Assembly (NCBI GenBank): GCA_964291265.2
Contig: OZ219747.1
Span: 1,312,001 to 1,376,000, forward strand
Direction: 5' to 3'
Source: Alphaproteobacteria bacterium
Lineage (GTDB): Bacteria > Pseudomonadota > Alphaproteobacteria > SP197
DNA length: 64,000 nucleotides
In this document: one piece after another, positions 14,292 through 64,000 of the stretch
Position numbering within the stretch: position 1 is the stretch's first letter
Layout: the number at the start of each line of letters is the position of its first letter
The notes under the pieces: generated by a model
What the model was told of the DNA's origin: nothing
What the model saw: only the letters and a program-made list of their open reading frames with translations
The model's database searches: none
Translations under genes and position numbers: made by a program

Positions 14292-14315
14292 GTAAGCGTT
14301 CGGTTCGCGCGGTGA
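14292..14315 (+). mobile_element. Orphan IS66-type terminal repeat
   Basis: GTAAGCGTTCGG..CGGTGA, the same motif as at 48422 and at 54509 (reconstructed). Confidence 0.6.
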
Positions 14316-14471
14316 CTGGGGCGATGACAGCACCGAGCGAATGCGAGTCCCGGGCAATGCGTCGTAGACACTGTCATCCTCATCATCGTCACCCTTTCAG
14401 TCAACGATACAATCACCATTCCTTTCACATCACCGCCCGGCGCTGCGACCGGAATTGGAGGAAACGGGGTC

Positions 14472-27212: not shown

Positions 27213-27361
27213 TCGGAGAACCCCATGCACGTCCGCACGCCTTCTGTTGGGACCCTGGGAGGTCTTCGAACTATCCCGCCTGTCGTGGCGGGACCGTGTA
27301 GGGAAAGGAGAAAGCCGAAGCCTATGATGGATGGTTTGAAGAAGTCGGATGGGGCCGTAGG
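27208..27361 (+). ncRNA. Internal fragment of the outer group II intron RNA (5'-truncated copy of the intron starting at 63030)
   Basis: Near-identical to 63268-63421 (offset 36060). Confidence 0.8.
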
Positions 27362-28560
27362 GTGTGCTGGGCAGCGCCCAGATCAGGTGGGTTCAAGTCC
27401 CACTGGCGCTCGGGTAAGGGGCGCCATATCCAAAAGCGGGGGTCATTCCTCGCTGGCCGGGGTGAGCGAATAAGCGACGCCCTAAACGGGCACGAAGTTG
27501 GAAACGACGGACACTGCCAAGGGAAGAGCTAAGTTGGTTCACTGTCGAGAGACAACCGGAGGGCAGGGTGTCCACCGTGAGGTGGAATCTGAAGGGCTTG
27601 CGGAGAAGTACCGGGCCGTAATCGAGGGGGCGACCCCATGATGAATCGGTCGGCCAAAGACGGGGCAAGGTCGAGCCGGCACTATGGCGGCGAAGGCGTT
27701 CTTACTCACCCGTCGCACCAAGGTGTTTGCGAACGGCACGGTACGGAAGATCTGGACGTGACCCCAGGAGGGCTCGTCGTGTTCCCGGGTGGCACCGGGA
27801 TAACGGCCCCTATAAGCCGAGAGGCGAAGTGAGAAAGGATGCACGGCGAGCAATCGGACAACCGAATAGTACCACAAGCCCGGTGAAAGCCGGGTGACCG
27901 CGCGAGCGGCGACCGGGTGGGTCGGGGAAGGCGGTTGGCAGAGGTGGTTGGTGAGAGACGGTGAAGGAGCGAGTAAGGATCATGACGCGGACAAGTTCCA
28001 TGAGCGAAAGACCCGGACGTCATGGGCCGAGGAGACTGGTTCACTGGCTCAACCTGACGGGAGAAAGGAAGGTCCACTCACTGGTGGACAAGGTGTACAA
28101 GCGGAAGAATCTTGAGGTGGCCTGGGAGAAGGTCAAGCGCAACCGCGGTGCCGGTGGCGTGGATGGAGAGAACCTGGCGGCGTTCGAGGCATCGCTTGAT
28201 GCGAATCTCGATCGCTTGCACCGAGAGTTGCGGGACGGTGATTACGGTCCGCAGCCGGTTCTCCAACGCCTGATTCCCAAGGCGGGCCAGCCGGGGAAGC
28301 TACGTCCTCTTGGCATCCCGACGATTTACGATCGGGTGTGTCAGCAGGCGCTGCTGAACCGGCTGGAGTCGATCTTCGAGCCGATTTTCGATGATGCCAA
28401 CTTCGGGTATCGGCAAGGGAGGTCCGCCCATGGAGCACTACGCAAGATATGGAAGGAACTGGACGAGGGCCGGGAGTGGGTTGTTGACGCGGATTTGCAG
28501 GATTTCTTCGGATCCGTGGACCACGCGAAGCTTCTTGAGCTTGTGAACCAGCGCGTCAAC
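27362..28560 (+). mobile_element. Inner group II intron (RT-encoding), 3'-truncated
   Basis: GTGTG start (+/-1 nt), about 600 nt of structured RNA, then the RT ORF. No DV or DVI is present. Confidence 0.8.
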
Positions 28561-28575
28561 AATCCACAGGGCTGA
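27961..28575 (+). pseudogene. ltrA: Group II intron reverse transcriptase/maturase, truncated after RT domain 3
   Basis: AWEKVKRNRGAGGVDG, RPLGIPTIYDRVCQ, GYRQGRS and VVDADLQDFF motifs; no PQG or YADD. Confidence 0.9.
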
Positions 28576-48153: not shown

Positions 48154-49100
48154 TCACCCTTATGGCCATGAAAGGGCAAGGATGGCCTCCGTTTTCACCC
48201 GGGGCGCCTTGCCAAGCGGCCTGGCCGTTCTCGTCGCCATGCTCCCGGAGGGACGAGTTCCGTGCAGCACCTCGTCGACTTCGCGCGCCGTTCGGTCAAG
48301 GCCGTCAGGGGTAGGCAATCCGATTCCCGAGGAACGGGAGAGGCGCACTGAGTGCGCGCGCCGGACTGCTGCCATGGCTTGCGACGAGGCCAACCGTTCA
48401 GGATGCACCTTTTCTGCCCGCGTAAGCGTTCGGCCGTGCGGTGATGGCTGATTTTGGTTGGTTTGGGGCTTGCTGACTATTGTCTGAGAAAGTTCTGGTA
48501 AACCCGTTTGGTCTCGATTATGGTCGGGGCCATGGAGACTTTCGACGAGGCGTGCGGAGCGGCACAGCAGCTGACGGGAGGTGGCGACGGCCTATGTCTG
48601 GCGCCATCGGCCTTGTCATGCGAGGTGTCTGACTGGCGTGCGCTCTATGAGGCGGAGCGGGTCCGTGCTGACACATTGCAGTTTGATCTCGACCGCACTC
48701 GTGATCAGCTCAAGGAGGCTCGCGCGGAGGTGCGGGCGGCTCGCCGGGATGTGAAGCGGGGGCAGACCCTGGCGGAGGCGCTGAAGCGGGAAAGGGACGC
48801 TCTGAAGCGTAAGAACGCTGAACAGGCGAGCGAGCTGAGGAAGCTGCGCGGGACGCGTGAAAAGCACGCGAAGGCGCGCTTCGGGTCGAAGAGCGAGAAG
48901 CGGAAGAAGAAGGCAGGCACAGGGAACAAGCGGGGTCAGCAACCTGGCAAGAGCGGCCACGGGCGCACCCCGCGTCCGAAGCTTGAGGAGAAACACGAGC
49001 GCCATGATCCACCGGCATCGCAGCGCACGTGCCCGTGTTGCGGCGAGCCCTATGTGGCCAACGGCAGCCACGAGACCTCGATCATGGAGGTCCATGTCAA

Positions 49101-50762
49101 GGGTGCAGTTCTCGTATGGAGAAGCCAAGTCATTGATTTATCACGGTTGTGCGGTCGCGATGGAGCGGCGAATACGGGGTTTCGTGACAATTGCCCGTTT
49201 CAGGACCGGATTTTGTCACGATGGCAGGGCTTGGCGGTGGATGCGGGAACGCTCCGCACCGCAAGATGCGATATGATGCTGGCTTGAAACCACAACATCA
49301 GGAGCGCTCCCATGTCAGTGTCACAGCTTCGGCCTTCCGCGTCCATCGATCTTCTCGGCTTGCCGCCTCGGGTTGTCGAAGCGGTCACGCAAGTGACCGC
49401 GGTGTGTCATCGACAGCTTGGTTCAGAGCGCTCTGCCGAGGCCTTCGAGGAAGCGGAGCGGCGGGTGCTTGAGAGCGTGCACGCGCTTGGTTGCGAGATC
49501 CTGGGTGCCTGTGCCGAGGCCCGGGACGACGGTGCGCCCCGGATCGAACGGGACGGGCAGAACTGGTTCCGTGTGGCGCCGACGCCGAAGACGATCATGA
49601 CCTCGCTCGGCCCGGTGACCTTTCGGCGTGCGCGCTATCGCACCGGCGGGCACTGCCGGTCGCTGATGCCGGTGGACGAAAGCCTGGGCCTCGTCGACGA
49701 CGACCTGACACGGCCGGCGGCTCAGCTTGGGCTGATGATGATGGTCCACTGCACGGCGCGGGAAGCGGAGGCGTTCTTCGGCAAGCTCGGCGCCATGACG
49801 CCGTCTGTGAGCACCTTGCAGCGCTTGAGCCTGACCATGCAGGAGCGTTGGGAACGTCTCGGTCCGCAGGCCCTGGATGGCATCCGGGAAGCCGAGGACA
49901 TCCCGCAGGACGCGGTCACCGCCTCGGTCTCGCTCGACGGCGTCATGGTGGCGCTGCGGGCCGGCGAGGACGGCCGTAGCGAGGCCTGCTGGCGCGAGGC
50001 GGCCTGTGGCACAGTCTCCTTCCACGATGCCGACGGTGAGCGCCTGAAGACCGTCTATCTCGGCCGCATGCCCGAGCGCGGCAAGTGCACGCTGAAGGTG
50101 CAGCTGGCAAGCGAGGTCGCGCATATCAGGCGCGAGCGTCCCGAGATCAGGATCAGCGCCATCGCCGACGCCGCCGCCGACAACTGGACCTTCCTCTCTG
50201 GTCTTGAACCCGAAACCGAGGTGATCGACTTCTGGCATGCCTGCGAGCATCTGCGCGTGGTGGCCGACCATGCAGCGGCGCCCCACTGGTTCGAGAAGTA
50301 CCGCGAGATCCTGCGTCACGACCCCCGCGGCATCGACAGGGTGATCCGGGCGCTGCGCCACCTTCGCGACACCGCCAAGCCGGCGGGCCGAGCCGACATC
50401 GACAGGGAACTGGCCTTCTTCCGCAAGCATCGCCACCGCATGCGCTACCACGCGCTGAAGCAACAGGGGATCGCCATCGGCTCGGGACTTGTCGAGGCAG
50501 CCAACAAGACCCTCGTCACACAGCGCATGAAGCGCTCCGGCATGCGCTGGCGCATCGTCGGCGGACAAGCCGTTCTCACCTTCCGCGCCCTCATCAAATC
50601 CGGCCGCTTCGAGAGCGCGTGGACAGCCATGATCGGGGCAGACGACGCACCAGCCAACGACAACATCAACCCACATCACACCCCGGCGCTGGCCGCATGA
50701 GATGAAACAATTGAACTAAGCCCATAACTTAAGCGCATAACTGCCATACTAGACTCACACCC
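49101..50762 (+). mobile_element. ISKra4/ISLre2-like (IS256-related) element with an 8-bp TSD
   Basis: CATGTCAA at 49093-49100 and 50763-50770; imperfect IRs GGGTG....TCT.GTATGG. Confidence 0.9.
49312..50700 (+). CDS. ISKra4-family (UPF0236-like) transposase
   Basis: SLDGVMV, IADAA, DFWHACEHL, IGSGLVEAANK and RMKRSGMRW motifs. Confidence 0.9.
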   Translation: MSVSQLRPSASIDLLGLPPRVVEAVTQVTAVCHRQLGSERSAEAFEEAERRVLESVHALGCEILGACAEARDDGAPRIERDGQNWFRVAPTPKTIMTSLGPVTFRRARYRTGGHCRSLMPVDESLGLVDDDLTRPAAQLGLMMMVHCTAREAEAFFGKLGAMTPSVSTLQRLSLTMQERWERLGPQALDGIREAEDIPQDAVTASVSLDGVMVALRAGEDGRSEACWREAACGTVSFHDADGERLKTVYLGRMPERGKCTLKVQLASEVAHIRRERPEIRISAIADAAADNWTFLSGLEPETEVIDFWHACEHLRVVADHAAAPHWFEKYREILRHDPRGIDRVIRALRHLRDTAKPAGRADIDRELAFFRKHRHRMRYHALKQQGIAIGSGLVEAANKTLVTQRMKRSGMRWRIVGGQAVLTFRALIKSGRFESAWTAMIGADDAPANDNINPHHTPALAA

Positions 50763-51627
50763 CATGTCAAGGCTCATGTCCGGCGGATTGACCGTGGGCG
50801 TTGGCGCCGTGGTTGTCAGTGTTCGTCGGCGCCTGGGGAGATCATCGCGCCGCCACCTTTGCGCTTGTTTGCGAATACCCCCTTTGGCAACAGTGTCTGG
50901 GCATGCGTGCTCTATGAGCGCTTCGCCTGCTTGCGTCCCCTGCGCCGGGTCTCGCGATGGCTCAAGGACCAGGGACTGCCGATGGCGCCGGGAACGATCG
51001 CTGGCGGCATGAAGAAGATGACGCCGATGTTCGCGCCTCTCGCGCAGGCCATCCTCGATCATCAGAACCGGCTGACGGTGCGCCACGGCGACGAGACCAG
51101 CTGGCGCATCCAGTCCCTCAAGGCCTCGGGGCGCTCGCAGAAGGCCTGGCTGTGGACCGCGGTCAGCGCCGACTCCGTCTTCTTCCTCATCGATCCGTCA
51201 CGCAGCGCCCGGGTGGCCATGGTGCTGTTCGCCTCCACCAAAGGTGTCGTCTTCCTTGTCGTCGATCGTCACGCGGCCTACAAGAAACTGGAGCGCGTGC
51301 TCGATGGCAAGGTGATCCTCTGCTTTTGCTGGGTGCACTCCAGGCGCGATGTGATCGAGGCTGCGGCAGGCCAGGAGGGGCTGGAAGAGTGGTGCGACAG
51401 GTGGCTCGACAGGGTCGCGCTGATCTTCACACTGAATGGGCAACGGCTGAAGCACTACGATCCCGCACGGAAGCGTCAGTCAGCGAGGTTCAATGCCCTG
51501 CAGAAGGACCTTCGTGCGGCTGTCGAGGCGCTGTTCAGGCAGGCTCAGGAGGAACTCGACGCCTTGCCCGAGGGTGCACGCGAAGCGAAGCCCTTGCGCT
51601 CCCTGATCCGTCACCGCGAGGGACTAT

Positions 51628-53410
51628 CCCGGTTCCGTCACCAAGGGGAATGATGGCGGCATGATGGCGTAATCTTCAGCCTCGGGCGCAGACAAGGTTC
51701 ACTTTGATTGCGCTGTTGGCGGAATCGTGTCGCATTTGGGATAGTTTTTCGGCTCATATTGGCAGGCCAAGGGAGCCGAAGGCCGTTTTTGGCGTTCGTG
51801 TCTATGCCGGGACATGCGCCAGGCACACCCCTGGCGACGCCTTCGGGAGACGCTGTGATCAGACTGTGATGGGATGCAGCACAAGCTATCCCGGCGGCGG
51901 CGCCTGGGCCGCGGCACGCAGGTTGACGAGAGTGCGGGCGAACACCTCCTGCAAGGGGAAGATCGAGGCAAAGGAGAGGCGAAGCCGGCGCACCGTCTTC
52001 GTCACCCTGCCGGCAAGCTTGAACAACCGGGAGCGTATGGTGTCGACGCGCCAGCGGGCACACTCGGTGCCGTGCAGGCCGACACGGCGCACGATGTCGA
52101 CGATGGCGCCGGCAAAGGCCGAGAAGTCCATGCGCAGCTGGTTGGCCCGCATGACATGGCACGACGTGCGATCGGAGAACAGCCACAACTGCTGATCCTT
52201 GATCCGGTTCTCCATGTCTCCCCGAGCACAGTACCTCTGCTCATAGAGTTCCCGAGCGCCGACCTCCTTCCTGGAGATGCTCGTCACAATGTAACGAGCG
52301 TTCTTGCCGCGCGGTCCCGGTAGCCATTCCGCCTTGGCCACCACTCGCCGCTCGCGGGACCATGACTTCTGCGTGCGATACCGCAGATCCCGATACCGTC
52401 TGGATGGCTTGCCGAACACCAGACAACGCCGCCTCGACTTGTTGAGTGCCTTCGTGACCATGCTGTTCAAGCGAGGATTCTGACCATATCCAAAGACATA
52501 GTCGACACCATGGTCCTCGCACCAGACCATGATGTCGTCCGTGCCGAAGTCGGCATCCCCCCGCACCACGATCCGTGTCCGGGGCCACGTGCCGCGGATC
52601 TGCTCAACGATCCGTGACAGCTCATCCACCGAGCCATCCGCCGCGCCATGGTCGGCCGTCCGCAACCGGCAGCGCAGGATGTGCTCGCCGCAGACGACGA
52701 ACAGCGGCAGGAAGCCATGGTGGTCGTCATAGCCGTGGAAGTACTTGCCCTCCTGGTCGCCATGCACCGGATCGTCGGTGGCATCAAGATCCAGAACAAT
52801 CTCCTTGGGCGGTTCCGCATGGCTCTCCAGAAACAGGTCCACAAGAAGACAGTCCAGTGCTTCGTGATCGGCCACGATCTTCTTGTAGCGGTCCAGGCTC
52901 GCCTCATGCGGATCGCCGAGTTCCAGGCGGTTCAGCGTGCTCGAGGCCGCCAGCACATGTCCACGGTCCCGCTCGCGAACCCGTCTCGCTCCCTCCACAT
53001 CGTCGATCCCGCAAGCCAGGGCCAGAGCAGGGTCGTCACGCAGACGGTCATGATCGTTGAGATCCTCGTAACCCAGAGCCAAAGCGATGATGCGCTGCGC
53101 CACCAGTGTCGTCACATCGTGTTCAATGCGACTGGGATCACGATAATCAACAAAAGCGCCAGCAACACGCTCCGTCACGTTGAAAAGCCTGTCTGCTTCC
53201 CGCAACAGAAGCGCACCACCGTCGGAGGTCATGCGGCCACCATCGAAATTGGCCACAATCTGCCGCCGTCCGAGACCTTCAAACTCAAGTTGTTGTGCTG
53301 GACACTGTGTCGCCATGTGGATGGGCTCCTTGGTGCATGTAACTCATTGGTCTTGTTCATATATCACAAACCCCATCCCCATCAATAGGAAACTTGGTGA
53401 CAAATCCGGG
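51628..53410 (-). mobile_element. IS1380-family element, copy 2 (1783 bp)
   Basis: Same IRs as copy 1, but the flanks CTAT and TTAG do not match. Confidence 0.92.
51886..53316 (-). CDS. IS1380 transposase
   Basis: Near-identical to 21560-22990. Confidence 0.95.
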   Translation of the reverse strand: MATQCPAQQLEFEGLGRRQIVANFDGGRMTSDGGALLLREADRLFNVTERVAGAFVDYRDPSRIEHDVTTLVAQRIIALALGYEDLNDHDRLRDDPALALACGIDDVEGARRVRERDRGHVLAASSTLNRLELGDPHEASLDRYKKIVADHEALDCLLVDLFLESHAEPPKEIVLDLDATDDPVHGDQEGKYFHGYDDHHGFLPLFVVCGEHILRCRLRTADHGAADGSVDELSRIVEQIRGTWPRTRIVVRGDADFGTDDIMVWCEDHGVDYVFGYGQNPRLNSMVTKALNKSRRRCLVFGKPSRRYRDLRYRTQKSWSRERRVVAKAEWLPGPRGKNARYIVTSISRKEVGARELYEQRYCARGDMENRIKDQQLWLFSDRTSCHVMRANQLRMDFSAFAGAIVDIVRRVGLHGTECARWRVDTIRSRLFKLAGRVTKTVRRLRLSFASIFPLQEVFARTLVNLRAAAQAPPPG

Positions 53411-53755
53411 TTAGGGTGTCGGCGCCGAAGGCATGAGGCCTTGGTGCAGGAAGGTCGATGTCGAGCGACGCAGCAAGATCAGGCAGCCCCGCGCGTGCCG
53501 AGGCAAGGCACAGCTCTCCCTTCGCGTTGCGCCACTCCTCGCGCTCAGCACAATCCCCGCGCCAGGGACGAGCGTGTGCTGCCCTCGGCAGCCGACGCCG
53601 CCTTCAGCCAGTCAACCGTCGTCGCAGATGTCGAAAGCCGATCCTCATGGACCACTATGTAAGGCCTCATGAACGGCGAGTTAAACACGGCGTTTGACAG
53701 GCCAAGGGGAGTGTGGTTATGGCCGAATCGGATATCCTGTCAGCGGGCGTGGACA

Positions 53756-54121
53756 ATGCAGGAGCGTGAAGGTTTGCCGTCCGGTATGACGCGGGTTGAC
53801 GATGCGCTGCTGCGGCGGATGACGGTGGCTATCGTCGAGGCGGCCGATCCCGAACAGGTGATCCTTTTCGGCTCCCGCGCCCGCGGTGACGCCGGGGCGG
53901 ACTCGGACGTCGATCTGGTGGTCGTCGAGGCGGAGCCGTTCGGGCCGGGCAGGGACCGTGGGGCCGAAGAGACGCGCCTCTGGCGCGCACTCGCGAAATT
54001 CCATGTTCCGAAGGATATCCTAGTCTACAGCTTGGACGAGGCCGACCGCTGGCGCGGCTCCCTCAATCATGTGCTCGCGCGCGCGTTGCGCGAAGGCAAG
54101 GTGCTCTATGAGCGACCTTGA
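53756..54121 (+). CDS. Minimal nucleotidyltransferase (MNT) antitoxin
   Basis: LFGSRARGD...DSDVDL and REGKVLYE motifs. The start is uncertain (53756 or 53786). Confidence 0.88.
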   Translation: MQEREGLPSGMTRVDDALLRRMTVAIVEAADPEQVILFGSRARGDAGADSDVDLVVVEAEPFGPGRDRGAEETRLWRALAKFHVPKDILVYSLDEADRWRGSLNHVLARALREGKVLYERP

Positions 54122-54506
54122 GCAGGCGCAGGAGCTGTTCCGCGCGGCTGAGAGAGACATTTCGGCGCTTCGCGGCATGGGCGATGCAGCCGTCTTCGCC
54201 GACGAGATTTTCGGCTTCCATGTCCAACAGGCGGCGGAGAAGCTGTTCAAGGCATGGCTCGCCTCGAAGGGCGAAACCTACCCGCTGTCGCACGATCTGG
54301 CGGCTTTGCTGGACATGCTGAGCGCCGACGGAGCGGAGGTCGCCCGTTTCGACGGGTTGGTGGACTACACCCGCTACGCCGTTCGCCTGCGTTACGCGGA
54401 CGCCGACCCGGGCACGTGCCCGCTTGACCGGCTTGGAGCAGTCGAACGGGTGGAAGCGTTAATGGTGGCCGTCCGGCACCGATTGGCGGAAACGGAAGCA
54501 GGCTGA
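54108..54506 (+). CDS. HEPN domain protein paired with MNT
   Basis: FHVQQAAEKLFKA, SHDL and YAVRLRY motifs; overlaps the MNT gene. Confidence 0.88.
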   Translation: MSDLEQAQELFRAAERDISALRGMGDAAVFADEIFGFHVQQAAEKLFKAWLASKGETYPLSHDLAALLDMLSADGAEVARFDGLVDYTRYAVRLRYADADPGTCPLDRLGAVERVEALMVAVRHRLAETEAG

Positions 54507-54508
54507 CG

Positions 54509-54525
54509 GTAAGCGTTCGGTCACG
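54509..54525 (+). mobile_element. IS66-type terminal repeat split by the outer intron (continues at 56301)
   Basis: Rejoining the exons gives GTAAGCGTTCGGTCACG|CGGTGAT, compared with GTAAGCGTTCGGCCGTGCGGTGAT at 48422. Confidence 0.75.
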
Positions 54526-56300
54526 GTGCAGCGAGTCTAGCTGCTGTACTTGCGGGTGTGAGCCCCGCCGGCGCAATTCTCAGTTTGGCGCCGTAGCATA
54601 TCCCACTGGTTCAGGGGTGACCCTGGACCAGCGAGCTGGGATGTAGAAGCCGTTGTGGGCTGGTTGGAACGCAGTGTCCAGCCGGTTCGGTCAGCCAGGA
54701 CGGCGAGCAAACCGGAGGGCCGCAGCGAAAGCGAACGATTGTATGAAGCCACGAAATGACGCTCCCACATGAAGCTGATTTGTGGGGTAAACGGGAATGC
54801 CAAAGGCTTCGTGACTGCCCGATGGCCAGAGTCGATGCGGAAGAACTGAGGTGCACGCATTGGGTTCCCCGGGGTAGAGACGACGGCAATCCGGGACAGT
54901 ACAGCAGTGAAAGATCGGAAGGTCAGGAGGACAGACAGGATGAAGTGACCCTTGAATGTCAAGGACCGCGTCTATAACCAGGATTGGGAAAGGACGCGGA
55001 GTCCTCCTGACTGGCGGATGAGGTCGAGTAAGCGTTGACGGGCGGGACAACACAACCCGTCCCGAGCGAGGACCTCAGGGCTCAGGTGGCCTATGCGGCA
55101 GGTCAAGTCGGTACTCAGAGACCGGCACCGACCGACAGACTGCAAGGTCGAAGGACGGAGCAAACGCTCGGAGATGCCGTGGGTATGGATGGGTCAGCCT
55201 TGACCATGGCGTGTCCGGCGGAAGGCTCCGCACCGAACTCCAAGTGGGTGCCTGATGCTTGAAGCCGTACCCGGGAAAACCGGACGTACGGAATTTTAGG
55301 GGGGCGTGCAGCGAGTCTAGCTGCTGTACTTGCGGGTGAAAGTCCCGCCGGCGCAATTCCCAGTTTGGCGCCGTAGCATATCCCACTGGTACAGGGGTGA
55401 CCCTGGGCCAGCGAGCTGGGATGTAGAAGCCGCTGTGGGCTGGCTGGAACGCAGTGTCCAGTTGGTCTGGTCAGCCAGGGCGGCGAGCGAACCGGAGGGC
55501 CGTAGCGAAAGCGAACGATTGTACGAAGCCTCGAAAATGAAATTTCCCACATGAAGCTGACTTGTGGGGTGTTGGGAACGCCAAGGGCCTGCCCCCAGCT
55601 TGGTGGCCAGAGTCGATGCGGAAGAACTGGGGAGCACGCATCGGGTTCCCCGTGGTAGAGACGACGGCAATCCGGGACAGTACAGCAGTGAAAGGCCGGA
55701 AGGTGAGGAGGACAGACAGGATGAAGTGACCCTTGAATGTCAAGGACCGCGTCTATAACCAGGACTGGGAAAGGACGCGGAGTCCTCCTGACTGGCGGAT
55801 GAGGTCGAGTAAGCGTTGACGGGCGGGACAACACAACCCGTCCTGAGCGAGGACCTCAGGGCTCAGGTGGCTTATGCGGCAGGTCAAGTCGGTACTCAGA
55901 GACCGGCACCGACCGACAGACTGCAAGGTCGAAGGACGGAGCAAACGCTCGGAGATGCCGTGGGTATGGTCGGGTCAGCCTTGACCATGGCGTGTTCGGC
56001 GGAAGGCTCCGCACCGAACTCCAAGTGGGTGCCTGATGCTTGAAGCCGTACCCGGGAAAACCGGACGTACGGAATTTTAGGGAGGCTGCTGGAAACGTGG
56101 TCTATGGTAGTTCTGCGACCCCGCCCGCAATCGAAAGAGCGGTGCCGGACAAAGCCTCTGCCTACGGATGCGCGCGCCAGCGGCCTACCCGACTGCTGGA
56201 AACGTGGTCTATGGGAGAACTGCGACCCCGCCCGCAATCGAAAGAGCGGTGACGGACAAAGCCTCTGCCTACGGATGCGCGCGCCAGTGGCCTACCCGAC
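54526..56300 (+). ncRNA. ORF-less group II intron, outer (54526-55305 plus 56194-56300; 887 nt)
   Basis: GTGCA 5' end; DV GAAGCCGTACCCGGGAAAACCGGACGTACGGAATT; DVI ending CCTACCCGAC; EBS1 and EBS2 complementary to the 5' exon. Confidence 0.88.
55306..56193 (+). ncRNA. ORF-less group II intron, inner (888 nt, complete)
   Basis: Close paralog of the outer intron with intact DV (about 56042-56078) and DVI ending CCTACCCGAC; no RT ORF. Confidence 0.9.
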
Positions 56301-57058
56301 CGGTGATTGTTGGTGATATTCACCGGTTGAGGATGCGTTTCCAGTCCTTGCGCAGAGGCCTCAGCTAGATGTCTTTTTCGGCTTGTCGTGTTTCTTGTGC
56401 GCATCGTAGCGGCCTCGTCCTTGGGTGGTTCCGACACGGATCCATCCTGACGCCTTGTAGACGGCTCCTGTGTAGCGCGGTATTCGGACGAAGGTTTCGA
56501 TAGGGGTGCGCGTATGGCATGACGGTTTCATTGGCACTACCCTTTGGGCGGGTCCCTCTCGTGGCGATCAGACGGCGAAGGGCAGTTGAGCAAGACCATC
56601 CCACGCTAGAATCCTTGAATGAAGCCAATAGTGCACAGATGAGCCAAGTTTTCATCATGGACATATTCAGGCGGCAAGGGTCTGTCCCTCCCGGAGTTTG
56701 CTGACCTCGTCATCGAGCGAGTGGAGGATGCGTCCGAGCTTGGATGGCACCTTGTCATCGAAGGCCGCCGCCAGGGCAGGGCTGAGTGTCCGCCGGTGGA
56801 TGCGGCACCAGGCAAGAGCGATCCTCTGCCCGGTTTGCGTCAGACGATAGCGATGGGATGACGGTATCCTCTCGATGAGGCCCCGCAGGCGCAGGCGCCG
56901 CAGGTCATAGGTGGCTTGACGTGAGCCATGGGTGTCGGTCGACAGGAGATCGGCAACGGCCTCTCTCATCTGGCGATTGTTGAAGCCCATGAGGAGGAAG
57001 ACATGCAGCAGGATGGCTGCGAGGACTGCCTGGATGCGTGGAGCACCGAAGCGCTTAG

Positions 57059-58841
57059 CCCGGTTCCGTCACCAAGGGGAATGATAGTGGCATGATGGCG
57101 TAATCTTCAGCCTCGGGCGCAGACAAGGTTCACTTTGATTGCGCTGTTGGCGGATTCATGTCGTATTTGGGATAGTTTTTCGGCTCATTTTGGCAAACCA
57201 AGGGGATCGAAGGCCGTTTTTGGCGTTCGTGTCTATGCCGGGACATGCGCCAGGCACACCCCTGGCGACGCCTTCGGGAGACGCTGTGATCAGACTGTGA
57301 TGGGATGCAGCACAAGCTATCCCGGCGGCGGCGCCTGGGCCGCGGCACGCAGGTTGACGAGAGTGCGGGCGAACACCTCCTGCAAGGGGAAGATCGAGGC
57401 AAAGGAGAGGCGAAGCCGGCGCACCGTCTTCGTCACCCTGCCGGCAAGCTTGAACAACCGGGAGCGTATGGTGTCGACGCGCCAGCGGGCACACTCGGTG
57501 CCGTGCAGGCCGACACGGCGCACGATGTCGACGAGGGCGCCGGCAAAGGCCGAGAAGTCCATGCGCAGCTGGTTGGCCCGCATGACATGGCACGACGTGC
57601 GATCGGAGAACAGCCACAACTGCTGATCCTTGATCCGGTTCTCCATGTCTCCCCGAGCACAGTACAACTGCTCATAGAGTTCCCGAGCGCCGACCTCCTT
57701 CCTGGAGATGCTCGTCACAATGTAACGAGCGTTCTTGCCGCGCGGTCCCGGTAGCCATTCCGCCTTGGCCACCACTCGCCGCTTGCGGGACCATGACTTC
57801 TGCGTGCGATACCGCAGATCCCGATACCGTCTGGATGGCTTGCCGGACACCAGACAACGCCGCCTCGACTTGTTGAGTGCCTTCGTGACCATGCTGTTCA
57901 AGCGAGGATTCTGACCATATCCAAAGACATAGTCGACACCATGGTCCTCGCACCAGACCATGATGTCGTCCGTGCCGAAGTCGGCATCCCCCCGCACCAC
58001 GATCCGTGTCCGGGGCCACGTGCCGCGGATCTGCTCAACGATCCGTGACAGCTCATCCACCGAGCCATCCGCCGCGCCATGGTCGGCCGTCCGCAACCGG
58101 CAGCGCAGGATGTGCTCGCCGCAGACGACGAAGAGCGGCAGGAAGCAATGGTGGTCGTAATAGCCGTGGAAGGACTTGCCCTCCTGGTCGCCATGCACCG
58201 GATCGTCGGTGGCATCAAGATCCAGAACAATCTCCTCGGGCGGTTCCGCATGGCTCTCCAGAAACAGGTCCACAAGAAGACAGTCCAGTGCTTCGTGATC
58301 GGCCACGATCTTCTTATAGCGGTCCAGGCTCGCCTCATTCGGATCGCCGAGTTCCAGGCGGTTCAGCGTGCTCGAGGCCGCCAGCACATGTCCACGGTCC
58401 CGCTCGCGAACCCGTCTCGCTCCCTCCACATCGTCGATCCCGCAAGCCAGAGCCAGAGCAGGGTCGTCACGCAGACGGTCATGATCGTTGAGATCCTCGT
58501 AACCCAGAGCCAAAGCGATGATGCGCTGCGCCACCAGTGTCGTCACATCGTGTTCAATGCGACTGGGATCACGATAATCGACAAAAGCGCCAGCGACACG
58601 CTCCGTCACGTTGAAAAGCCTGTCTGCTTCCCGCAACAGAAGCGCACCACCGTCGGAGGTCATGCGGCCACCATCGAAATTGGCCACAATCTGCCGCCGT
58701 CCGAGACCTTCAAACTCCAGTTGTTGTGCTGGACACTGTGTCGCCATGTGGATGGGCTCCTTGGTGCATGTAACTCATTGGTCTTATTCATATATCACAA
58801 ACCCCATCCTCATCAATAGAAAACTTGGTGACAAATCCGGG
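57059..58841 (-). mobile_element. IS1380-family element, copy 3 (1783 bp)
   Basis: Same IRs; TTAG on both flanks (57055-57058 and 58842-58845). Confidence 0.93.
57317..58747 (-). CDS. IS1380 transposase
   Basis: Near-identical to the other two copies. Confidence 0.95.
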   Translation of the reverse strand: MATQCPAQQLEFEGLGRRQIVANFDGGRMTSDGGALLLREADRLFNVTERVAGAFVDYRDPSRIEHDVTTLVAQRIIALALGYEDLNDHDRLRDDPALALACGIDDVEGARRVRERDRGHVLAASSTLNRLELGDPNEASLDRYKKIVADHEALDCLLVDLFLESHAEPPEEIVLDLDATDDPVHGDQEGKSFHGYYDHHCFLPLFVVCGEHILRCRLRTADHGAADGSVDELSRIVEQIRGTWPRTRIVVRGDADFGTDDIMVWCEDHGVDYVFGYGQNPRLNSMVTKALNKSRRRCLVSGKPSRRYRDLRYRTQKSWSRKRRVVAKAEWLPGPRGKNARYIVTSISRKEVGARELYEQLYCARGDMENRIKDQQLWLFSDRTSCHVMRANQLRMDFSAFAGALVDIVRRVGLHGTECARWRVDTIRSRLFKLAGRVTKTVRRLRLSFASIFPLQEVFARTLVNLRAAAQAPPPG

Positions 58842-60517
58842 TTAGGCGGATACCCGACGTTCGTCGACGACGACAGGTTGATGCAGGGCATCGAAGGTGG
58901 CTGCTCCGATCGGACAGTCGTGACTGATGCGTTGGACGTCGAGAAGACGTCGGGTGGCGTGGAAGCCGACCTCCTTGAGGTCATCGAGGTTGATCAGTCT
59001 GCGCTTGATGCCGAAGTCGTACGTGTTGTTGATCACCTTCTGCGTTCGCACACGGCCTTCCTTGAAGGACTGCTTGATACGCGAATGCTTGTAGTCCACA
59101 TGCAGCGACGGCTGCACGCCGTCGGTGATGACGCGGGTTCTGAACCGCGAGGTGGTCCGCCGTGTGATACGGCGGTTGAAGATCAACTGCACATGGTCGG
59201 GACGGCCGATGTCAAGGTTCTCGCGCATGATCTCCTCGAACAGGATCCGGCCGTGAAGAGGACGGTCAAACACCTGTGTGAGCGCACACTCCGCCTGGAG
59301 GATCGACAGGTCGTAGCGGATGCCCCTCATCGCGTCCTCGTCGGTGAAGGGATGGGGAAGCCGTGTCGTCCACTTGCGGAACAGCGCGTCGATCCGTGAG
59401 GCATCGATCTCCCCGGCCACGGCCTGCATGATCCGAGGATCGGCACAACTCAGGATGCCGTTGTCGAGAGCCTCGAAGGCCACCCCGCGCTCGCTCAGCT
59501 GACGCTTCAGGTATTCGTGACCATTGAGGCACAGCCTGGCGTTGTACGGGAAGTAGGAACAGAACTTGATGAAGCAGGGACCGAAGTCGTCGTCCACGAT
59601 GTAGATGTACCAGGCATTGACCATCGCCGTGCTGTGAACCAATTCGCAGGACGCCCTGCCCGTCGCCGGATCAACGCGCTTCTGCGTACGCAGGACACGG
59701 GCCTTCTCCTGGGCCTTGCCGACGTAAAGGACACCTTCACCGCCAGACCACAGGCGAAGATACTTCTGTGTCACATCGTCCTTGCGCTCCCCCTTCCTGA
59801 AGCTGACAAGGTCGACACCCTGGTCCCGGGCAAACCGCTCCAGGCGCGTCACAAACCGCCGCGTCATCGGCGCCATCAGAGCCGATGACGGAACAGGATT
59901 GTCCCGGACCTCCCGAAAGAACCAGGCCGCGCCACCACCCGTCTGCAGCATTGGCACATAGGCGTTGAGATACAGCCGGTCCAGACACTCAAGCTCCAGC
60001 GTCACGTGATTCTCAAGGACCTCGCCAACAGACCGTGCTATCGTCATCTTCTGGCCTCCGAACGATGGGTTCCCCACATGGTTATCATAACCAACCCAGC
60101 CCTCGGGCTGTATCAGGCGGATCACACCGCAGAGCGGAACAGCGGGCTCAAGTCCTCTTTCTCACGCGATGCCTCTCTTCGGTCCGAGGCATAGCCTCAT
60201 TAGGTCCGTGGACGCGGGGATGTGAACATCCGCGTCGGTCTGGCCCTTGCGGTCAGGATGGCCATGACACCTGCCCGGCGCGCACGGGCCGTGTCAGGCG
60301 TCATCGACGCTGAGCCTCACCGTGAGCCAGGCTTGACCCTTTTTTGTCACCGAACTCGCCAATCAATTGGTCCGGCTGCCTGCACAGTCGAGACCACGAT
60401 CGCCTTCACGAATGGTTCCTCACCCGTCTGGTTGCGCCGGGGAAGTCAAGGCCACGTCTTGCCTTCAAGGCCTGCATAAATTGCGCACCGCAGCGCTTAC
60501 GGTGGAGCCATGCCTTC

Positions 60518-63029: not shown

Positions 63030-63421
63030 GTGTGCCAGGTGAACTGGCGGAAGGTAGGGGGTGAAAGTCCCCTGGAACGAAGGAGTAACCAAACCACGTT
63101 TCTCCGCGAGCCGTGCGTCGGTTCCCGCGAGGGGGCAGGCGAAGCGTCGGTAGCGGTGCGGATGGGCGGGGCTAATGAGCACCGAAAAAGCAGTCATCCG
63201 GGGTGCCGAGGCTTTCGTACCGGTCGAAGGCAACATCGCAGGCATCGATTTGGTGAGATGTCGACGAGCGGTGTCCGAGAACCCATGCACGTCCGTACGC
63301 CTTCTGTTGGGACCCTGGGAGGTCTTCGAACTATCCCGCCTGTCGTGGCGGGATCGTGTAGGGAAAGGAGAAAGCCGAAGCCTATGATGGATGGTTTGAA
63401 GAAGTCGGATGGGGCCGTAGG
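63030..63421 (+). ncRNA. Outer group II intron 5' part (DI-DII), inserted antisense in IS66 tnpC
   Basis: GTGTG start; GGGTGAAAGTCCC; EBS1 CGTACC (63216-63221) and EBS2 AGCACCG (63178-63184) pair with the 5' flank. Confidence 0.85.
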
Positions 63422-64000
63422 GTGTGCTGGGCAGCGCCCAGATCAGGTGGGTTCAAGTCCCACTGGCGCTCGGGTAAGGGGCGCCATATCCAAAAGCGGG
63501 GGTCATTCCTCGCTGGCCGGGGTGAGCGAATAAGCGACGCCCTAAACGGGCACGAAGTTGGAAACGACGGACACTGCCAAGGGAAGAGCTAAGTTGGTTG
63601 ACTGTCGAGAGACAACCGGAGGGCAGGGTGTCCACCGTGAGGTGGAATCTGAAGGGCTTGCGGAGAAGTACCGGGCCGTAATCGAGGGGGCGACCCCATG
63701 ATGAATCGGTCGGCCAAAGACGGGGCAAGGTCGAGCCGGCACTATGGCGGCGAAGGCGTTCTTACTCACCCGTCGCACCAAGGTGTTTGCGAACGGCACG
63801 GTACGGAAGATCTGGACGTGACTCCAGGAGGGCTCGTCGTGTTCCCGGGTGGCACCGGGATAACGGCCCCTATAAGCCGAGAGGCGAAGTGGGAAAGGAT
63901 GCACGGCGAGCAATCGGACAACCGAATAGTACCACAAGCCCGGTGAAAGCCGGGTGACCGCGCGAGCGGCGACCGGGTGGGTCGGGGAAGGCGGTTGGCA
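63422..64000 (+). ncRNA. Inner group II intron 5' RNA (runs off the window end)
   Basis: Near-identical to 27362-27940, which leads into an RT ORF. Confidence 0.85.

Follow-up and report, generated by a model that had tools for sequence, protein, structure and literature searches.

We analyzed a 64,000-nt stretch of an Alphaproteobacteria bacterium (SP197; assembly GCA_964291265.2, contig OZ219747.1, positions 1,312,001-1,376,000 of the forward strand), hereafter "the window", in which two nested group II introns, both on the + strand, lie inside the end of an insertion sequence (IS), immediately downstream of a gene pair resembling an MNT-HEPN toxin-antitoxin system (Table 1). The gene pair, in which the MntA match for the nucleotidyltransferase falls below cut-off, ends 2 nt before the IS end and 20 nt upstream of the outer intron (A). 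The insertion lies 20 nt past the HEPN stop codon, and the site is non-coding, in agreement with the original prediction for this locus.

Both introns begin with GTGCAG, a variant of the GUGYG-like form, and end with CCCGAC, i.e., with the terminal AC. Without the inner intron (B), A is 887 nt long; B measures 888 nt and is 93.6% identical to A. No stop-free frame exceeds 183 codons in A or B, and the longest in the joined A is 144 codons. A has no RT/maturase ORF in domain 4 and is not an autonomous RT-encoding retroelement; blastx against RTs from 34 loci gave no RT remnant in A (best E 0.85). Both introns score above the gathering score of RF02003, with group II (IIB-like) domain 1 and ends, and folding and alignment give the domain 5 triad and bulge and the bulged A of domain 6; the AGC triad and AC bulge of domain 5 belong to the established anatomy of group II introns. 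Among the matches listed for a second profile, RF00029 (one search scored 150 of 255 candidates), there are no copies of A or B, the probable cause being their long domain 6 (~105 nt). In the predicted fold, B follows directly after domain 5 and interrupts the long domain 6 of A in its basal stem. The nesting is precise, and the same site is used in five copies of a sister variant, C. Excision of 54526-56300 joins GTAAGCGTTCGGTCACG to CGGTGAT, as had been claimed, and A interrupts the terminal repeat between its bases 17 and 18.

Other mobile elements crowd the window. An IS66 at 48422-51634 is interrupted by an ISKra4-like element (49312-50700), and two IS1380 copies (51886-53316 and 57317-58747) lie on either side of the twintron. 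A repeated transposase-like ORF without a Pfam or NCBIfam match (58842-60125 and 56667-56990) is apparently split by IS1380. Toward the end of the window (63035-64000 and beyond), an RT-encoding group II intron, L004, interrupts another IS66 transposase in antisense orientation and itself appears to hold a nested, second intron-like element from ~63422; a similar piece with a truncated, different RT is present near 27300-28570.

Table 1. Coordinates in the window of the twintron, its exons and pairing elements, and the related ends discussed in the text
Feature	Position	Strand	Basis
Decayed IS66-type MITE, unoccupied, IBS1 altered	14292..14410	+	Aligns with duplication-flanked ~120-bp MITEs
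Unoccupied left-end terminal repeat of another IS66, itself disrupted; reads GCCGTG at IBS1	48422..48445	+	Transposase piece 50859-51653 matches DDE_Tnp_IS66
Nucleotidyltransferase + HEPN gene pair (MNT-HEPN toxin-antitoxin-like)	53669..54506	+	Pfam Polbeta/NTP_transf_2 and HEPN
Outer 17 bp of IS66-type right-end terminal inverted repeat (5' exon)	54509..54525	+	IBS2 54512-54517, IBS1 54520-54525
Intron A, domains 1-5 and 5' strand of domain 6 base	54526..55305	+	RF02003 at 54550-54730, 61.4 bits vs cut-off 49
EBS2 of A (GACGCT)	54758..54763	+	5 Watson-Crick pairs and 1 wobble with IBS2; covaries with target in sister variants
EBS1 of A (CGTGAC)	54810..54815	+	Pairs with IBS1 at all six positions; covariation in six variants
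Predicted EBS3 of A (G)	54877	+	Pairs with +1 C of 3' exon
Domain 5 of A (AGC triad, AC bulge)	55261..55296	+	Fold
Inner ORF-less intron B, in base of A's domain 6	55306..56193	+	RF02003 at 55330-55510
Exon-binding sites of B	EBS2 55539-55544, EBS1 55591-55596, EBS3 55658	+	Pairing table
Rest of A's long domain 6 and 3' splice site	56194..56300	+	
Rest of IS66 right end (3' exon): repeat remainder and ~200 bp, orphan relic	56301..56501	+	

The interrupted repeat and its pairing with intron A

IS66 repeats are 20-30 bp long, begin with GTAAGCG and are accompanied by 8-bp target duplications, according to a published account (PMC11946415). The motif at the intron insertion fits this description and is an IS66 terminus, as had been proposed. 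Its exact 12-mer occurs 100 times in the host genome, as against none in 1 Mb simulated with an order-4 Markov model, and 35 pairs of ends flanked by 8-bp duplications (≤1 mismatch) bound elements of 1.9-8 kb and MITEs of ~120 bp. The transposase of one 2.9-kb copy matches the IS66 family model NF033517 (269 bits against a cut-off of 180). The end family counts 133 exact copies of the 14-mer in this genome, compared with 0-2 in each of 22 congeners. IS66-type MITEs of ~115-127 bp with 8-bp duplications form a large family genome-wide (e.g., C1:279000-279123), and the 1.9-kb IS66-ended elements carry a passenger gene with C-terminal tandem repeats in place of a transposase.

Within the window, the exact 12-mer is found at 14292, 48422 and 54509; allowing up to 2 mismatches gave 5 hits where chance alone would give 4.2. 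The copy at 54509 marks a right end: over 219 nt it shares 92% identity with the right-hand terminus of an IS66 at C2:3298766 that is flanked by target duplications. At 54509 itself no complete IS66 was found: the end has no flank-matched partner, duplication or transposase, and similarity to IS66 stops after ~220 bp. Because all three are missing, the occupied end is, on its sequence, to be taken as a ~220-bp orphan relic. The left end at 48422 is ruled out as its partner, since both read on the + strand. The two unoccupied ends share the motif, as originally described, and differ from each other at IBS1, also as described; the label of orphan end given to the one at 14292 does not hold, as it is one end of a decayed ~119-bp MITE.

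All three exon-binding sites of A match this end: EBS2 pairs with IBS2 (AGCGTT), EBS1 with all six bases of IBS1 (GTCACG), and the predicted EBS3 with the first base of the 3' exon. In a cross table of six variants and ten sites, the EBS1 of each variant pairs with its own site at 6/6 positions when wobbles are allowed (5/6 at C3117), and A's EBS1 makes at most 3 pairs at each of eight non-A sites. The EBS3 base is G in A and B, where +1 is C or T, and C in variant C, where +1 is G. The three pairings hold across the set with two exceptions, a mismatched EBS3 in G002 (A against C) and an EBS2 at C486 that stays unpaired in the registers tried. Overall, six variant/target pairs show covariation between EBS and target. 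The differences among A, B and C, all in the host genome, cluster in EBS1, EBS2, one base assigned to EBS3 and one long-range pairing, the alpha-alpha' interaction of group II anatomy, which covaries among the three. The three outside relatives that complete the set of six (G002, L075 and L089) are 81-83% identical. The EBS1 region alone folds no better than shuffled sequence (z -0.10), and the minimum-energy structure leaves EBS1 outside a loop.

Occupied and vacant ends

We took a census of ends in the host genome (4.8 Mb, rated 100% complete), which returned 285 raw hits at ≤2 mismatches, chance hits included (20 per Mb in simulated sequence); 96 were filtered out and 189 kept, and the end classes are to be read as rough motif labels. 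The full 12 bases of IBS2 and IBS1 occur at 45 sites in 9.65 million strand-positions and at none in 2 Mb of simulated sequence, and 43 of the 45 sites are IS66-type or MITE ends. These 43 perfect ends comprise one with full-length A, one with an intron fragment, three with possible scars and 38 that are plainly empty. With 38 of 43 perfect ends vacant, IBS1 mismatch does not account for vacancy. Right ends that differ by wobble only (14 of 40) are also empty, and no left end (0/36) matches IBS1.

The fragment (C2:3544651-3544718) corresponds to the final 68 nt of the intron, with 100% identity, and interrupts a MITE end at the very bond that A occupies. It resembles an intron copy that was truncated from the 5' side or suffered a deletion, and is assigned to A by its target only, since these 68 nt are identical in A and C. 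Repeated occupation thus amounts to one full copy and one fragment, both at right or MITE ends. The three possible scars, left out of the occupied count, are MITE ends with GTG or ATG before CAGCGA (C2:1433618, 1827384 and 1873317); they could be intron deletion scars via a 6-bp microhomology or simple 3-nt insertions, possibly from a single event. Two of these MITEs keep their target duplications (8/8 and 7/8).

Two parts of the original prediction, that the ends form a renewable supply of sites and that the intron probably immobilizes the IS, find no support here. Among 23 duplication-flanked full-length IS66 copies with a standard left end, none has a perfect site and none has an intron in its repeat. 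At the IBS1 position their right ends read GCCACG (13), GTCGCG (6) or CTCATN (4), and their left ends GCCGTK. The expanding full-length copies supply no perfect sites, and given the low occupancy as well, the pool of ends is large but barely used and is not being renewed by active IS. As for immobilization, partner, duplication and transposase are all missing at the occupied end, and the same end is intron-free in other samples; because it is a relic, immobilization cannot be read from this locus.

Introns in the coding region of the same IS66 fill far more of their sites, 12/29 and 14/28. The single-ORF IS66 coding region is hit by these two further group II introns at L001 (C2:374818-377700) and L002. 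The sense-strand intron is ORF-less and ~660 nt long (14/28 sites), and its host copies have distinct 8-bp duplications; the antisense one (12/29 sites) is an RT-encoding relative of the ~660-nt intron.

Sister variants, other samples and a possible helper

A is present as one full copy in the genome. B has six copies, all six identical, and every one of them lies in domain 6 of A or C, hosts that differ from each other by 4.4%. Identity across such differing hosts implies recent movement, and some RT would have acted recently. B's own copy of its target carries a substitution, which would protect it from self-insertion. C, 96% identical to A, has 6-7 copies at five loci, including a head-to-tail pair; it occupies a transposase gene that we take, from its translation, to be ISAs1-like (2 loci), a repeated surface-protein-like gene and two other sites. 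Copies of A in unrelated sites had been named as evidence against homing to IS66 ends; such copies do exist in a loose sense, as those of C, but their EBS differ. At one locus (L009, C2:3769211-3772762), two C+B twintrons stand head to tail. The predicted EBS3 of C (C) pairs with the first G of the resident intron, so that an occupied site would remain a target.

Smaller traces of these introns are scattered through the genome. A ~170-nt miniature of the ORF-less intron with both ends is found at C2:3580494-3580665, and other 5' or 3' intron fragments at C2:417017, 710192, 1767668 and 3261256. Relatives of the ORF-less intron also lie inside RT-encoding introns, at L070 and L065 (G010) and at L084/L089; those of G010 are at the ORF start of the RT intron, and that of L089 is in a ribozyme resembling that of L111. 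In a tally of insertions, 9 of 12 face the lagging-strand template (origin at ~722 kb, terminus at ~3,292 kb; one-sided p ~0.07), a weak bias.

Beyond the host genome, the comparison set included the 22 congeners, metagenome contigs and five public sequencing runs (X1-X5), of which X1-X3 come from one study and X4 and X5 cover the locus minimally. Runs with a small share were left aside, and none of the listed runs was an RNA run. The HEPN/IS-end locus is intron-free in all three runs covering it (X1, X2 and X3; ≥33 letters on each side of the junction). These contigs represent other alleles rather than spliced products, because the junction bases vary. X1 also holds possible traces of the intron at IS ends: a 41-nt contig spans the repeat-intron junction with 0 differences, though it falls below the 31-letter bridging rule; two contigs join other flanks to the first base of the repeat; and contigs over A's EBS2 and EBS1 have 0 and 1 differences. 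These contigs hint at further occupied ends in this sample, in which contig depth gives no copy number. One more X1 contig joins a non-IS flank, retaining IBS1 only, to the intron start, and A's targeting may accordingly be relaxed.

The lineage itself extends further than the association with IS66. A domain 6 scan of the metagenomes gave 18 loci, of which 4 were dropped as chance and 14 are real, with 9 distinct 3' exons, none of them an IS66 end. Taken together, 0 of 8 congener junctions and 0 of 9 distinct metagenome 3' junctions lie at an IS66 end, and several lie inside other introns. The junction pattern itself was found in none of the 22 congeners and gave 0 hits in metagenome contigs. 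A looser scan of genome contigs gave 39 hits, which we attribute to chance since none (0/39) carries intron sequence. The domain 6 pattern had 0 hits in viral contigs, and two blastn queries had no match in plasmids. A D5-D6 search across the phylum, in which only 2 candidates were scored in each genome, was positive in 0 of 400 genomes, and a degenerate domain 5 regular expression, which missed known copies too, returned nothing.

No copy of the lineage with an ORF was found in any genome or metagenome examined. RT matches in the host genome number 18: a single RT accounts for 16 near-identical copies and one fragment, the remaining match is an unrelated fragment, and none lies in an intron of the A/B/C lineage. 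The genome's RT introns were considered as the cognate source and rejected, as they gave no nucleotide-profile match. Against the long-domain-6 RT introns of G012/G013, the D5-D6 profile reached only E 0.02-0.3. The lineage, which offers no RT to place, may belong to bacterial class F, a class marked by its RT phylogeny and a long domain 6; the E-like, F-like and C-like class labels are presumptive as well.

Transcription of A may depend on its surroundings. No promoter-like site was found in 53300-56700, and no terminator-like site on its + strand. A is antisense to the direction of the IS66 transposase and in sense with the MNT-HEPN pair just upstream, which makes read-through a plausible source of intron RNA.

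How A may have reached its site, and known parallels

We consider it likely that A, which is protein-less and matches the bond between bases 17 and 18 of the IS66-type repeat with all three EBS, entered by base-pair-guided reverse splicing with an RT that was presumably borrowed. Following the established biology of group II introns, A RNA would arise by transcription, likely as read-through from the neighboring genes; B, which splits domain 6 of A, would splice out first, and A would splice afterwards; A would then reverse-splice into the repeat, guided by its EBS, and an RT from another element would synthesize the cDNA. Targets would be divided within the lineage, with A reading IS66 and MITE ends, B reading domain 6 of A and C, and C reading other sites. 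Since at least three variants differ mainly in their EBS and each has its own targets, IS66-end targeting appears to be a local retargeting rather than a property of the lineage, and it may have arisen in a genome where IS66-type ends multiplied. Splicing and retrohoming of the lineage are presumed, and the identical B copies and the empty alleles bear on them only indirectly. We infer that A moves poorly now, because it lies antisense to the transposase and would depend on read-through, B interrupts its domain 6, and the search for a related RT came up empty.

Three other readings of the locus have to be weighed against this one. A could be a specialist that uses renewable IS66 ends and immobilizes the elements it enters. 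The perfect fit of EBS1-3 to a repeat present in 43 copies, the splitting of a ~24-bp repeat by the insertion and the X1 hints of more occupied ends all fit such a strategy, which RmInt2 shows to be workable (PMC4615759). We nevertheless regard it as unlikely, given that neither a perfect site nor the intron occurs in any of the 23 duplication-flanked full-length IS66 copies, the end that A occupies is an orphan relic and is intron-free in other samples, two scar-candidate MITEs retain their duplications at 8/8 and 7/8, and no IS66 end is found among the 8 congener and 9 distinct metagenome 3' junctions. Another reading is an arms race, in which expanding IS66 lineages would have escaped A by single IBS1 changes (GCCACG, GTCGCG). 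While older MITEs and relic ends mostly read GTCACG and active right ends are one base off in two different ways, the same positions vary in congener right ends (GCGACG, ATCACG, GTGACG) where no A-type junction was found, GTCGCG requires a wobble only, and perfect ends are empty too; we find this reading quite improbable.

One ectopic insertion by chance, with later recombination or adaptation of the EBS and no true homing target, would explain why there is only one full copy and why most matching ends are empty, and a non-coding site would tolerate any insertion. That same tolerance means little selection for later EBS adaptation, and still EBS1, EBS2 and EBS3 all fit the site; in an element of a second type a fragment occupies the same bond, and the same covariation is seen in all six variants, all of which leaves a chance origin very improbable in our estimate. 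Returning to base-pair-guided entry with a borrowed RT, we offer one extension tentatively, as a possible but doubtful generalization: a long-lived non-autonomous lineage may be copied by the RT of an unrelated intron, in the manner of SINEs and LINEs, with its EBS re-programmed onto whichever repeat bloomed in the host. Here, the repeats so targeted would be IS66 and MITE ends, the lineage's own domain 6 and other repeats.

The idea of homing to IS terminal repeats is already known from RmInt2 of Sinorhizobium meliloti GR4, which homes into the inverted repeats of ISRm17 (PMC4615759 and PMC5894124). Martinez-Rodriguez et al. (2014) argue for the benefit of a multi-copy, non-coding target and suggest control of IS mobility (PMC4615759). 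RmInt2 and A are alike in that the EBS/IBS target is an IS terminal inverted repeat. They differ in that RmInt2 carries a class D RT of its own, is present at seven sites and is able to enter both ends, whereas A has no ORF, is interrupted by B, exists as one full copy and fits right and MITE ends, with no match to the left ends of active IS66. In titles and the beginnings of abstracts, we found no report of an intron in IS66 repeats or MITE ends.

A second parallel is provided by TeI3/TeI4 of Thermosynechococcus elongatus, described by Mohr, Ghanem and Lambowitz (2010, PMC2882425) as ORF-less introns with EBS-diverged families and mobilization in trans. That system likewise has identical inner introns in diverged outer introns (twintrons), and one of its families lies in an IS. 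Its helper RTs are encoded by close relatives in the same genome, whereas no related RT was found in the host genome here, and its inner intron sits in the RT ORF, whereas B splits domain 6 of A. Bacterial ORF-less introns nearly always accompany a related RT-encoding intron, according to Zimmerly and Semper (PMC4424553).

Set beside these systems, the locus represents an independent arrival at IS terminal-repeat homing, in which an intron without an ORF uses a bond inside the IS66 repeat and MITE ends as well. It also offers a clean natural case of retargeting through EBS change alone, seen in six variant/target pairs. Most worth following is the missing helper, as an ORF-less lineage that has recently moved has no detectable related RT in a genome rated 100% complete, which makes cross-class mobilization directly testable.
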